A stretch of 64,000 bases of DNA from a virus. The DNA is taken from positions 1 to 64,000 of the IMG/VR virus record IMGVR_UViG_3300021376_000030, one strand, 5' to 3'. Below are positions 2,723 to 35,625 of the stretch, piece after piece; position 1 is the stretch's first letter, and each line of letters starts with the position of its first letter. Both the position numbers and the translations under genes were made by a program. The notes below the pieces were generated by a model that was not told where the DNA came from, did not search any database, and saw only the letters and a program-made list of their open reading frames with translations.

Positions 2723-3206
2723 ATTGAATCACTCCTTGCTCTAACAATCTAATGGCCTTCTCATCTCTTTTCATATGTCTGATTTGAGCTTTACTAAGAG
2801 CCATGGCTTTGTGATATTTTAAATAAAAACATTCATCATTTATGGAGATTACATTGTCCAAAGAGTTGGTTTCAACTCGGTGAGACTTCATATCAATGAC
2901 TTGATACACACCAAAGTATTCTCCCGGAAGCGCAACAGGAGTACCAATACCCTTGTCTCTATCAGATACAATAATACCATAATTGATATCAATACCTTTA
3001 AATTCGTTCTTGGTCTTGAGCTCTTGTCTAGTTAAAGCATCACAAACCTTGTGGTATTCTTTAGAATTATAATCAGGAAGAGCATTAGGCTTGTACCAGA
3101 ATTTAAGATGATATACTTTGCTGCAAATAGATTTTGTAGGGTTAATCTGAATATCCATATAAGCAAACTTCTTGGGGCTAACCACTTTGTAAATGTATGC
3201 GCTCAT
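2715..3206 (-). CDS. hypothetical protein
   Basis: 163-aa ORF overlapping neighbours. Confidence 0.6.
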   Translation of the reverse strand: MSAYIYKVVSPKKFAYMDIQINPTKSICSKVYHLKFWYKPNALPDYNSKEYHKVCDALTRQELKTKNEFKGIDINYGIIVSDRDKGIGTPVALPGEYFGVYQVIDMKSHRVETNSLDNVISINDECFYLKYHKAMALSKAQIRHMKRDEKAIRLLEQGVIQYA

Positions 3207-4937: not shown

Positions 4938-5153
4938 ACTACTTTACATGGTCAAGATTAAATTAAAACCACGGATTGTCTAAATAACCTAAACTTACTT
5001 CATCTATTTTTCTTTGAGCTTCTATTAACTGTAATTGATTTATAGCATTTTTTAATAATTGAATACAATCTTTATGTGAGAGATTATTATTTTTTTTTAA
5101 TTTCAAAATTAAATCAATAATTGAATCGGAAGGCGGCACATAATATTTATAAT

Positions 5154-5226
5154 TGGGCCCACAAGGATTTGAACCTTGGACCAAGGCATTATGAGTGCCA
5201 CGCTCTGACCGCTGAGCTATAGGCCC
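5154..5226 (-). tRNA. tRNA with CAU anticodon, probably Ile2 (lysidine type)
   Basis: GGGCCTA/TGGGCCC acceptor, TGGCA-CTCATAA-TGCCT anticodon arm, GGTTCAAATCC T-arm; GGGCCTATAGCTCAG start typical of Ile2; no encoded CCA. Confidence 0.85.
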
Positions 5227-5285
5227 AATAAATTGATTATACTATAATTGTTGGAATGTATTAAAGGAAAAAAATTAAAAAAAAA

Positions 5286-23238: not shown

Positions 23239-23300
23239 GGTTTAGGGTGACCCTCTTAAGTAAAAACCCTATATTTTTTCGAATACGATAGGGGGCTTTT

Positions 23301-23391
23301 GCCTCCGTCGTCTAACTGGTTAAGACCCACGACTTATACTCGTGAAGCTCTAGATTTGGGCGCAATGTAGGTTCGAATCCTACCGGAGGTA
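23301..23391 (+). tRNA. tRNA-Ile(TAT) with long variable arm
   Basis: GCCTCCG/CGGAGGT, CACGA-CTTATAC-TCGTG, variable arm GCTCTAGATTTGGGC, GGTTCGAATCC. Confidence 0.85.
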
Positions 23392-23433
23392 GAAAAACCT
23401 TGCAAATAACAATAATTCTATTATTATAATTTT

Positions 23434-32841: not shown

Positions 32842-33036
32842 CTACGAATTATTTGCAGGAGAAGCGTCAGAATTAACCGTTTCCAGAGGAACGATATCTA
32901 CACGACTCAGTACGCGTTGACCACTAATAAGGGTAACAGGTACTAGAGCTGCATTGCCTTCCTTAAGAATAGCCTCAATTTTACTCTTAAGTTCAACTAA
33001 TTCTTGCTCTCTTGACGAAAGTTCTTGTGTTGACAT
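32842..33036 (-). CDS. hypothetical protein
   Basis: ORF. Confidence 0.5.
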   Translation of the reverse strand: MSTQELSSREQELVELKSKIEAILKEGNAALVPVTLISGQRVLSRVDIVPLETVNSDASPANNS

Positions 33037-33053
33037 ATCTTATATATATACTT

Positions 33054-33410
33054 TTAATTTGTTATTTCAATATATGAAAATCTTTTACTTGATGATGCTA
33101 GCGTATATCCTGCATCATTAGCAAAAATTATATCTAAATGTTGAGGATGATAATAAGCGGGAAGAGTAAACTGTAAGGTGTTATTTGTCCATGCAGTATA
33201 ATCCGAAATAGGGTAAGCGCTAAAGGGTGGGTTATTAGCACTCACACTTTTAACCCCACTATATAAATTATAATATTGTTCTGTACCATCAAATTTATTA
33301 GAGCTTAAAAACAACCCAACATTAGTTTTGTAATTAAACATATTACCTTGAAGAGTAATAATTTTGCCAGATACGCCTGTTTTAACGGTAAATGTAGGAA
33401 ATGTCTTCAT
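33054..33410 (-). CDS. Ig/IPT-like hypothetical virion protein
   Basis: ITL.G..F, L.F.LP, DII..N.AGY pattern; coupled to gp15-like gene. Confidence 0.45.
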   Translation of the reverse strand: MKTFPTFTVKTGVSGKIITLQGNMFNYKTNVGLFLSSNKFDGTEQYYNLYSGVKSVSANNPPFSAYPISDYTAWTNNTLQFTLPAYYHPQHLDIIFANDAGYTLASSSKRFSYIEITN

Positions 33411-34237
33411 TACGGTCCAAATGGAGTATATAATTCTACCGAAGAAATAACCGGGCGACCAGAAACTGTAACTGTTTCGGTATTAGCAACAGCAGAAAGA
33501 GAAATAGCATCATCTGTGGTTATTGCTTGAGTTTTTAGGGTAGTATAACTTCCATACTCTAATGTAGTGCCTGAACTTACTGCTGTAATATTAGTATCAA
33601 TTTTAAAAATATTTTTTACAGGAGCTTGAGGATCGGGAAATAACCAACCTTTAATCGTAAATCCGGTATCAGCAATTATTTGTGCTTTTTGTGAGCCGTT
33701 AATATCAGTGGGATAGGAAAGATTGACGCTACCGTTCCAAGACACTTCACTTCTAATCTCTTGTGTATATGGTAAATTAAATTCTTTTGGTATTGTCCAA
33801 CTTAAAATAATATAGGGATTGTTAAAAGGTATAAAATTGCTTAATATTTGATCCATATCTGATTGATAGCGAGTAATTATACTCATCTTAACATCAATAT
33901 TAACTGGTACTGGGGCTTTATAATAAAATGAAACACTCGAGGGTTGATCTTCAATAGGAGTACCGTGTGCATAAAAACCTGCATTTTTATTGAAAACTCT
34001 ATTATTGTCCCTCATAATTGAGCCAATGGTTACACTAACAACAGGTAGAGTTAAATTTTGACCTGGGTTAATTAAATCAAACAAAACCCGCTGTTTTGGA
34101 GCATAGATATATCTTACTTGTTGTTTTGCACCAACATTACGATTTTTGTCATATCTATTAATAACAACATGATCAAATGCTGCTAAAAACTGTATTAACA
34201 GATCTTTTACTTCAAAGTAATAGCTTTGTAATTTAAT
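33410..34237 (-). CDS. tail terminator/completion protein, T4 gp15-like; probable ATT start
   Basis: Frame open 51 codons upstream of track start (YYFEVKDLLIQFLAAFD..I.RY..VRYIYAPKQR); LPVVSV, PVPVNI, QIL..F.P.F.P, FT.KGWLF. Confidence 0.75.
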   Translation of the reverse strand: MKLQSYYFEVKDLLIQFLAAFDHVVINRYDKNRNVGAKQQVRYIYAPKQRVLFDLINPGQNLTLPVVSVTIGSIMRDNNRVFNKNAGFYAHGTPIEDQPSSVSFYYKAPVPVNIDVKMSIITRYQSDMDQILSNFIPFNNPYIILSWTIPKEFNLPYTQEIRSEVSWNGSVNLSYPTDINGSQKAQIIADTGFTIKGWLFPDPQAPVKNIFKIDTNITAVSSGTTLEYGSYTTLKTQAITTDDAISLSAVANTETVTVSGRPVISSVELYTPFGP

Positions 34238-34275
34238 ATACTTTACCTCTCTTATATTTAAGAGGTTAAAGGGGC

Positions 34276-34479
34276 TTAATTATAGTATTTCCACTTGTTT
34301 GCAGATAACTTTACAGATAGCTTTCTCTTAACGGAAGGCTTCATAAAAGATCTACGGATTCTAACTTCTTCTAATATACCGCATCTCTTAACTGCATTTG
34401 TAAATTGTTTAAGTTTTTTATCAAAATATAGTTTATTTGAACATTTATTTTTATCTAATTTTACTTCACAATTTATCAT
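34276..34479 (-). CDS. rpsU: ribosomal protein bS21 homolog
   Basis: FDKKLKQF...V.R.GILEEVR.RR.F.KPSVKRK; TAAATA core upstream. Confidence 0.8.
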   Translation of the reverse strand: MINCEVKLDKNKCSNKLYFDKKLKQFTNAVKRCGILEEVRIRRSFMKPSVKRKLSVKLSANKWKYYN

Positions 34480-34483
34480 TTGT

Positions 34484-34840
34484 TTATTTATCCTGAATTG
34501 TTACTTCTTCCATAATAGAAATTTCTGCAATAGTGTTAAAAAATTTGTTTGGTTTTTTAGAAATTAAATTTTTAGCTGAATCTTCTATGTGTCTTAAGTT
34601 ATGGCTTAACTTGTCTATGGTATAGTCTAAAATAATTCTTTTATCTACAACATTATATCCATAAGGGTAAGGTATTTCAAAGATTTTTTTCGTATGATGA
34701 ATGCCTAGAGTAAAAACAAGATAAAAGTCCTTTATACAAAAAAGTATCAATTTACCACTCTTGACCGTCTTACCATTAACAATAAAATTAACTTTTTGTT
34801 GAAGGAAGTTACTGATAGATCTCTCTAATTTTGATGTCAT
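34484..34840 (-). CDS. hypothetical protein
   Basis: ORF in operon. Confidence 0.55.
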   Translation of the reverse strand: MTSKLERSISNFLQQKVNFIVNGKTVKSGKLILFCIKDFYLVFTLGIHHTKKIFEIPYPYGYNVVDKRIILDYTIDKLSHNLRHIEDSAKNLISKKPNKFFNTIAEISIMEEVTIQDK

Positions 34841-34841
34841 A

Positions 34842-35219
34842 TTATGTATCCATGTAAGATATTTTTTGTGATGGTGTTAAGCCAACTAAATTTTCTTTGA
34901 AGTATTTCCAGAATGCTTCACCTGCAGGTATAGATGTTATAAGATCACAACTATCACAGCCAACTGCTCGATAATCTTGCATAAAAATATCCCATACAAT
35001 AACAAGATTTTTTTGTGTGGGGTTATATTTTAAAGGTCCTTTTGCTGGTCTATAATTTAATGTCATTCTCCCATCAACACTATTCAACAAAGATTGAGCA
35101 TTAGTACAAAGCATTCTCCGGGTATTAGGCTTGCCCGGTTTAAGTCTGCGCCGGGCAAACTTTATTTCACAAACATTATTTTGTAGCACGGACCTTAAGC
35201 TTGTTAGTGATACTAACAT
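34842..35219 (-). CDS. SH3/WYL-like (DUF2693-type) protein
   Basis: LQN.V.EIKF...R.MLCT...VIVWD....YR. Confidence 0.55.
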   Translation of the reverse strand: MLVSLTSLRSVLQNNVCEIKFARRRLKPGKPNTRRMLCTNAQSLLNSVDGRMTLNYRPAKGPLKYNPTQKNLVIVWDIFMQDYRAVGCDSCDLITSIPAGEAFWKYFKENLVGLTPSQKISYMDT

Positions 35220-35625
35220 CTTTTTCCCTCGGCTTAACTACACCGAATATTCGTTGTTCATTTAAAAAAATACCTGCGCGCAATGTCCCGTAATTAACTA
35301 CATCAATATTTGCTATTGGCACCCCCATATTGTTAGGGAAGCAAACATGGTCTCCAACCTTGACCAATCTACAGTTAATACCTGTTAATATTACCTTACC
35401 AATACGCCATGCATTCGTATCAGCATTTACAGGTACTAGAATACCGTTTCTAACTATTGTATTTGAACTGCCGCCATCATCAACAAATTCAACTAAAATT
35501 ACATCATCTAAAAGATTTACAAGATCATATCCCATAAACATACTATTAAATATATTTTTAGGCATTCCTCCTAAATCAATTAAACTTTTCTGTACAGGTA
35601 GTTGATCTACATTTGGTTTGCTCAT
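35176..35625 (-). CDS. GroES-like co-chaperonin
   Basis: L.D.ILVE, GILVP, GKVIL.G....VKVGD.V.FP, FLNE.RIFG. Confidence 0.7.
   Translation of the reverse strand: MSKPNVDQLPVQKSLIDLGGMPKNIFNSMFMGYDLVNLLDDVILVEFVDDGGSSNTIVRNGILVPVNADTNAWRIGKVILTGINCRLVKVGDHVCFPNNMGVPIANIDVVNYGTLRAGIFLNEQRIFGVVKPREKDVSITNKLKVRATK

Follow-up and report, generated by a model that had tools for sequence, protein, structure and literature searches.

A gp15-like tail gene of an uncultured freshwater phage with a probable ATT start, a strong Shine-Dalgarno sequence, and a TAAATA box within a putative masking hairpin

The stretch of viral DNA analyzed here (hereafter, the window) comprises 64,000 nucleotides, positions 1 to 64,000 of IMG/VR record IMGVR_UViG_3300021376_000030, and carries a gene related to gp15 of phage T4 together with the features listed in Table 1. 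Residues 6-243 of the predicted product match positions 3-232 of the Pfam profile PF16724 (T4-gp15_tss) with 71.8 bits against a cut-off of 25 (E-value 6.4e-20). The protein also matches phrog_227 ('tail sheath stabilizer'; E-value 1.4e-17) and, over residues 101-202, the solved T4 gp15 chains 4huh_A and 3j2m_A in a phmmer search (E-value 1.2e-5). Directly upstream lies a phage bS21 gene, as the initial annotation had stated, and this gene has a TAAATA sequence of its own (34490-34485), 5 nt before its ATG. Six tRNA genes were located in the window by ARAGORN, including one with anticodon CAT (5153-5227, minus strand) and an unusually long (93-nt) tRNA-Ile(TAT) at 23300-23392 (plus strand).

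Table 1 Features at the gp15-like locus of the window.
Feature	Position	Strand	Details
gp15-like tail sheath stabilizer / tail terminator gene	33410..34237	minus	275 codons plus stop, ORF intact from ATT
ATT start codon (probable)	34235..34237	minus	aligned to ATG/GTG/TTG starts of relatives
Shine-Dalgarno AGAGAGGT	34245..34252	minus	duplex energy -8.4 kcal/mol with the anti-SD
TAAATA box, probable T4-type late-promoter core	34255..34260	minus	in hairpin loop
Hairpin (predicted)	5' arm 34271-34260, loop 34259-34252, 3' arm 34251-34241	minus	covers the SD; one bulge
Phage bS21 gene	34276..34479	minus	PF01165 (Ribosomal_S21), 33.7 bits vs cut-off 27; phrog_21469

The gp15 frame is open from an in-frame TAA (34282-34280, minus strand), and the ATT at 34237-34235 is flanked by 14 open codons on its upstream side and 50 on its downstream side without any canonical start codon (ATG, GTG, or TTG). 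The first canonical start in this frame is a TTG at 34084, 51 codons past the ATT, in agreement with the initial annotation, which had described an N-terminal stretch of 51 codons free of such starts. These 51 codons are part of the T4-gp15_tss domain, and they are open and conserved in a cluster of proteins with at least 90% identity as well as in relatives with 45-81% identity; DNA comparisons covered relatives up to 81% identity, and the cluster at ≥90% is represented by protein calls alone. Logan contigs from two lake sequencing runs, X3 and X8, are identical to the window over 33900-34600 and read ATT rather than ATG at 34235, although both runs are possibly a source of the same DNA. None of the runs listed as containing this region is an RNA run. 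Two other runs were uninformative on the ATT, because X12 has no contig across 34202-34367 and X17 contains a diverged relative alone, with 226 letters replaced. A blastn search of 33000-35300 against the phage collection gave no match, and a pattern built from the start region of the window, with the start codon left free, matched no viral contig.

The start codon was compared across relatives, for which we took the best 80 of 125 confirmed loci on viral contigs and the best 80 of 86 confirmed loci on metagenome contigs. One locus (L146) was excluded from the counts because its match begins at query residue 61, at the end of a contig; the other 159 loci were collapsed into 87 distinct upstream regions, giving 88 lineages with the window. 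At the position aligned to the ATT, the codons are ATG (45), GTG (26), ATT (5), TTG (3), and CTG (1) in the 80 viral loci and ATG (41), GTG (38), ATT (7), TTG (1), and CTG (1) in the 88 distinct upstream regions. The ATT thus occupies the homologous start position and is shared by seven of the 88 lineages (the window, L031, L044, L055, L061, L088, and L104). Locus L147 was excluded from this group because its true start is an ATG two codons past the aligned ATT. All seven ATT lineages have intact ORFs (268-338 codons) and an open frame upstream that holds no canonical start, with the nearest canonical codon 12-51 codons further on, within the conserved domain. In one further lineage (L068 and L123), the aligned start codon is CTG; the ORF is intact with 260 codons, and no canonical start lies close by.

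Existing gene calls begin at other codons. In Synechococcus phage S-B68, gp15 is annotated to start one codon past the ATT-aligned position, and the 15 listed members (of 17) of the ≥90% identity cluster are called as proteins of 201-260 aa from internal codons, never of ~275 aa. One 251-residue call (P0064) appears to be a truncated call of the ATT-type locus L088, for which a start at codon 23 fits. Based on the alignment with the starts of relatives, the ATT is very probably the real start of the gp15-like gene.

Seven nucleotides (34244-34238) separate the Shine-Dalgarno (SD) sequence AGAGAGGT from the ATT, exactly as first annotated; the other coordinates of the initial annotation are likewise correct. 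SD sequences of this strength are rare in the window, where only two of 97 crude ORFs, gp15 included, reach -8 kcal/mol or lower. The SD duplex energy ranges from -8.0 to -12.7 kcal/mol in six of the seven ATT rows (the exception is L055, +0.7 kcal/mol) and never falls below -7.1 kcal/mol among the 81 non-ATT rows. Spacing between SD and ATT is 6-8 nt in the six SD-bearing ATT lineages. Six phylogenetically independent pairs were compared, and the strong SD went with ATT in five and against it in none, with one tie (p-value 0.0625, which is the floor for five pairs). A non-exhaustive regular-expression scan, which skipped gp15 itself, found no convincing case of another gene combining an SD with a non-canonical start.

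To place these starts on a phylogeny, a maximum-likelihood tree of the 88 proteins was used, on which the ATT label needs seven changes and the starred branches force at least six. Two near-identical gp15 sisters from one sample (3300016471) differ in their start regions: L030 has a GTG without SD, located inside a 9-bp hairpin, and L031 has an ATT with GGGGAGGT, which is paired to ACCTCC. The two loci have unrelated intergenic cassettes, located ~50 nt ahead of the gp15 match at 3001. The window and L088 belong to different subclades, yet the 5' arm and the box are common to both. These two patterns imply that the gp15 start module has often been exchanged or rebuilt. As judged from these sequences, related phages repeatedly evolved a module of ATT plus SD as a substitute for the usual ATG or GTG start. 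A different combination is found in L132 (546-603), which keeps an anti-SD-like arm (AACCTCC) before TAAATA and has an ATG 4 nt after the box with no SD; it looks like the remnant of an SD-led module.

The TAAATA box was examined as a possible late-promoter core. T4 late promoters extend from -13 to -6, the transcript begins 6 nt after the core, and the late promoter of phage Aeh1 is CTAAATA (excerpts of PMC1524935). Applied to the window, the T4 spacing rule puts the predicted start of a gp15 transcript near 34249-34250, at the first bases of GAGGT. In the window, counting both strands, 23 of the 97 ORF starts are preceded by a TAAATA that ends 2-9 nt away, and the raw pattern is modestly enriched (28 matches vs 17.5 expected; 2 of 100 shuffles reach 28). 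Among relatives, 86 of the 88 lineages have a TAAATA no more than 25 nt from the gp15 start; the distance is 1-9 nt in 62 of these 86 rows and 4-7 nt in most relatives, whose gp15 mRNA therefore looks leaderless. The other 24 rows have the box at ≥10 nt; 16 of them contain an SD-like core, which begins 4-6 nt past the box in 15 of the 16, several of these rows sharing one lineage, so that by our own reading the ratio is nearer to 7 of 8 distinct leaders. The box of SD-led lineages adjoins the SD, 13-25 nt from the start codon, and in ATT lineages the SD takes the place held by the start codon in most relatives. The start codon or the SD, whichever comes first, therefore sits at the transcript start expected from the T4 rule, a placement that favors a promoter over a translation signal located near the start codon.

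Of the 97 window ORFs, nine have a gap of 4 nt between the box and the start. Such gaps put the exact T4-rule transcript start inside the start codon, implying that the rule is off by one here, with transcription beginning one base earlier than in T4. A sigma-70-like sequence (TTGAnn-N16-18-TAnAAT) ends 4-9 nt before the start in nine further window ORFs. The presence of two promoter types just before start codons suggests that leaderless mRNAs are the norm for this phage, and most of its genes look leaderless. Homologs of the T4 late sigma factor gp55 were found in three of four relatives searched, including both complete ones (E-values 1e-9 to 8e-8), and the gp55-like sigma genes are L166 (G001:C1:164156-164428), L165, and L164. 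The gp15 of G001, a complete genome with a gp55 homolog, is 80% identical to that of the window. The same search of the window's own 84.9-kb record, which is estimated to be 40% complete, gave no match to T4 gp55. We interpret TAAATA as the probable late-promoter core of this phage group, from which the box upstream of gp15 would direct a transcript with the predicted 5' end. No TAAATA faces this box on the plus strand near 34230-34290, and a reading of the locus as a source of antisense RNA was set aside for this reason.

The sequence upstream of gp15 is predicted to fold over the SD, as had been proposed. In the minimum free energy fold (-11.2 kcal/mol), CUUUA (34271-34267) pairs with UAAAG (34245-34241) and CCUCUU (34265-34260) pairs with GAGAGG (34251-34246), and the AAATA of the TAAATA box sits in the 8-nt loop. 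The minus strand reads ACCTCTTA at 34266-34259. A weak outer helix joins 34279-34276 (the bS21 stop) to 34236-34233 (the TT of the start codon and the AA after it). The fold of the window is unremarkable in a 76-nt context (z = -1.58; 16 of 200 dinucleotide shuffles fold as well), and z is -3.66 against dinucleotide shuffles for the 54 nt ending at codon 3. Opening the region from -14 to +3 costs 11.3 kcal/mol in a read-through RNA (-120 to +40) vs 0.9 kcal/mol in a promoter-started RNA, which was modeled from the sixth base after the box. The corresponding costs are 13.2 vs 0.2 kcal/mol in L088 and 10.5 vs 4.3 kcal/mol in L031. These modeled energies suggest that the hairpin occludes the SD.

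Hairpin stability was compared between gp15 upstream regions and other TAAATA-led gene starts of the same phages, using dinucleotide shuffles and one representative per 70%-identity cluster. Values of z < -2 were obtained for 16 of 66 gp15 regions vs 4 of 78 controls (Fisher p-value 0.0013), and values of z < -3 for 12 of 66 vs 1 of 78; the Mann-Whitney p-value is 0.0097. Within the window alone, z < -2 was found in two of 28 other TAAATA-led genes. A stable hairpin is absent from about three quarters of the lineages, including three of the seven ATT lineages (L044, L055, and L061). Of the features that the initial annotation wished to see compared among homologs, the SD recurs in six of the seven ATT lineages, whereas the hairpin is missing from three. 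Counts of base pairs on either side of the box did not distinguish gp15 (55 of 86) from controls (16 of 28; p-value 0.65), and sense and antisense folds showed no clear difference in stability (10 vs 5 of 16; p-value 0.10). The arm sequences differ between clades, which makes a conserved protein-binding site unlikely. A terminator scan of the minus strand between bS21 and gp15 found no terminator-like site at the hairpin, and its interpretation as a plain terminator was dropped.

The gene neighborhood was classified in 84 lineages, four rows (L018, L084, L107, and L122) having no upstream ORF. bS21 lies directly upstream of gp15 in 21 of the 84 (start codons: ATG 8, GTG 9, TTG 1, ATT 3), and the other 63, which have no adjacent bS21, include four with ATT. 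Where bS21 is absent (L047-L062 and others), the upstream gene encodes a ~545-residue protein ending in ...KLPKHFIERI, so bS21 seems to have been inserted between this gene and gp15 in the clade of the window. The paper on bS21-carrying phages (PMC9723584, supplement aside) does not contain the terms 'start codon', 'promoter', or 'leaderless'.

We propose that the T4 gp15-type tail terminator is translated from the AUU at 34237, with initiation driven by the strong SD (GAGAGGU) 7 nt upstream. On RNA reading through from the bS21 gene, an 11-bp hairpin would pair the SD with an anti-SD-like arm (ACCUCUU) and keep the site closed. Late RNA begun ~6 nt past TAAATA would start at the SD itself, lack the 5' arm, and be open. 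Alternatively, the site could be opened by a ribosome that terminates on bS21, whose stop lies 5 nt ahead of the arm. The weak AUU would then set a low, probably IF3-sensitive output. T4 gp15 is present in six copies per tail, and low output would match a requirement for six molecules per virion. AUU gives 6-8x less product than AUG in E. coli reporters (excerpt of PMC3592434) and is the start codon most repressed by added IF3 (excerpt of PMC5499595). Initiation at this AUU is placed by alignment, and the role of IF3 is suggested by these E. coli results. We judge the complete scheme, in which a masking hairpin, promoter bypass or coupling, and tuned low output act together, to be moderately probable. 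It resembles the arrangement at T4 e, soc, 49, and I-TevI to which the initial annotation had likened the locus, and the likeness extends to the hairpin that masks the SD and to the predicted RNA that begins 6 nt past TAAATA without the 5' arm. The broader suggestion of layered translational control of tail completion retains the homologous ATT start and the pairing of SD with ATT in six of seven lineages, but its link to bS21 is not supported by the comparison.

Several alternative readings were weighed against this scheme. The hairpin may mainly be a translational-coupling device, such that gp15 output follows upstream translation and the TAAATA in the loop is incidental. The main 5' arm starts 5 nt past the bS21 stop, and this stop codon is itself part of the outer helix; moreover, pairing in the window and in L088 begins 4 nt ahead of the last base of the stop, and in many relatives the paired region begins at or before the upstream stop. 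Because the 5' arm abuts the bS21 stop codon, coupling is an equally simple way to open the hairpin, and it is compatible with promoter bypass. As the main function of the hairpin, coupling is possible but on the unlikely side, since it leaves unexplained why 86 of 88 lineages retain the box irrespective of the hairpin and why the SD stands at the offset of the T4-rule transcript start. It is unlikely that TAAATA is instead an A/U-rich translation-initiation signal in a phage that hardly uses SDs. Its position 2-9 nt before 23 of 97 ORF starts would suit such a signal, as would the nine gaps of 4 nt, which are too short for the exact T4 spacing, and the modest enrichment of the raw pattern (28 vs 17.5). 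However, the box of SD-led lineages stays by the SD, 13-25 nt from the start codon, and the nine sigma-70-like promoters 4-9 nt before starts argue for leaderless RNAs in general. The gp55 homologs of the relatives and the identity of CTAAATA with the reported late promoter of Aeh1 (excerpt of PMC1524935) also favor a late-promoter core.

Among readings that concern the start itself, we consider it very unlikely that the ATT is unused, whether because the gene is a decaying copy or because translation begins at the TTG at 34084 (giving a truncated protein of 224 residues) or at an ATA at 34255. The public calls for the ≥90% cluster do start at internal codons, and the ATA is in frame. On the other hand, the 51 codons that a TTG start would omit lie within the Pfam domain and are open and conserved in relatives, and the ATT recurs in seven lineages with intact ORFs, a well-spaced SD being aimed at it in six. 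The ATA itself lies inside the TAAATA box, upstream of the SD. Translation of the SD-led AUU mRNA could also depend specifically on ribosomes carrying the phage bS21, as the initial annotation had suggested. bS21 supports the anti-SD, and ribosomes without bS21 favor leaderless mRNA (excerpt of PMC10491246), so dependence of an SD-led gene on bS21 would be reasonable in a phage of leaderless type; gp15 is among the very few SD-led genes in this mostly leaderless-looking phage and adjoins bS21 in the window. Nevertheless, adjacency is unrelated to start type, because 18 of the 21 bS21-adjacent lineages use ATG, GTG, or TTG and four of the seven ATT lineages have another gene upstream, and specific dependence is accordingly quite improbable. 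A wider version is that gp15 alternates between two modules, a leaderless AUG or GUG start and an SD-first mRNA with AUU, of which the latter senses the state of the ribosome (IF3 level and occupancy of the anti-SD by bS21) and ties tail completion to the phage-bS21 translation regime. This version is speculative, and we regard it as doubtful.

The preferred reading of a masked, SD-led AUU start has implications for annotation and for the study of initiation. Gene callers shorten gp15 in every close relative listed (201-260 aa vs ~275 aa), which suggests that ATT starts in phage structural genes are being missed. The gp15 family also represents a natural experiment, because one codon position carries ATG, GTG, TTG, CTG, or ATT. 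At least six separate origins of the weak ATT are required, nearly all of them accompanied by a strong SD, and these took place in phages that make little other use of SDs and look largely leaderless. The family thus allows direct tests of how start codon, SD, and leader are traded off against one another. If the proposed mechanism holds, the T4 design of a late promoter inside an RBS hairpin would extend to a tail gene of uncultured freshwater phages that carry bS21. The literature searched on AUU starts in phages and on leaderless T4-like late genes contained no description of this arrangement.

Among the closest known systems are T4 e, soc, 49, and I-TevI (and also segB and the Aeh1 gene mobE), in which a hairpin sequesters the RBS and an internal late promoter bypasses it; in the first four, the RBS is folded into a structure on longer transcripts, and late ones start within that structure (excerpts of PMC3014915 and PMC2988022). 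As in these genes, the gp15 hairpin is predicted to pair the SD, and the late box is placed such that late RNA would lose the 5' arm. The window phage is T4-like, and its relatives encode a gp55-type sigma factor. Unlike those T4 genes, the window gene is a tail structural gene that follows a late-looking gene, not a lysis or homing gene in an early unit; it also has an AUU start, and its predicted late RNA begins at the SD without further leader. The box has the same core as the CTAAATA of Aeh1 (excerpt of PMC1524935), the base preceding TAAATA being C, A, or T, whereas T4 has TATAAATA. The Aeh1 motif was placed from -12 by prediction, and spacing in the window group suggests a start 5-6 nt past the box.

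The start itself resembles those of E. coli infC and pcnB, because it combines AUU with an SD, for which low output and discrimination by IF3 would be expected (excerpts of PMC5499595 and PMC3592434). Unlike infC, gp15 does not encode a translation factor and has no autoregulatory logic, and unlike both E. coli genes its AUU arose at least six times in one phage gene family, in alternation with AUG and GUG starts of leaderless type. The leaderless cI mRNA of phage lambda from pRM (excerpt of PMC10491246) provides a parallel for the promoter box that lies, in most relatives and at 23 of the 97 window ORFs, so near the start codon that the RNA would begin at or beside it, whereas the window gp15 is predicted to have a 12-nt leader that consists of the SD and its spacer.
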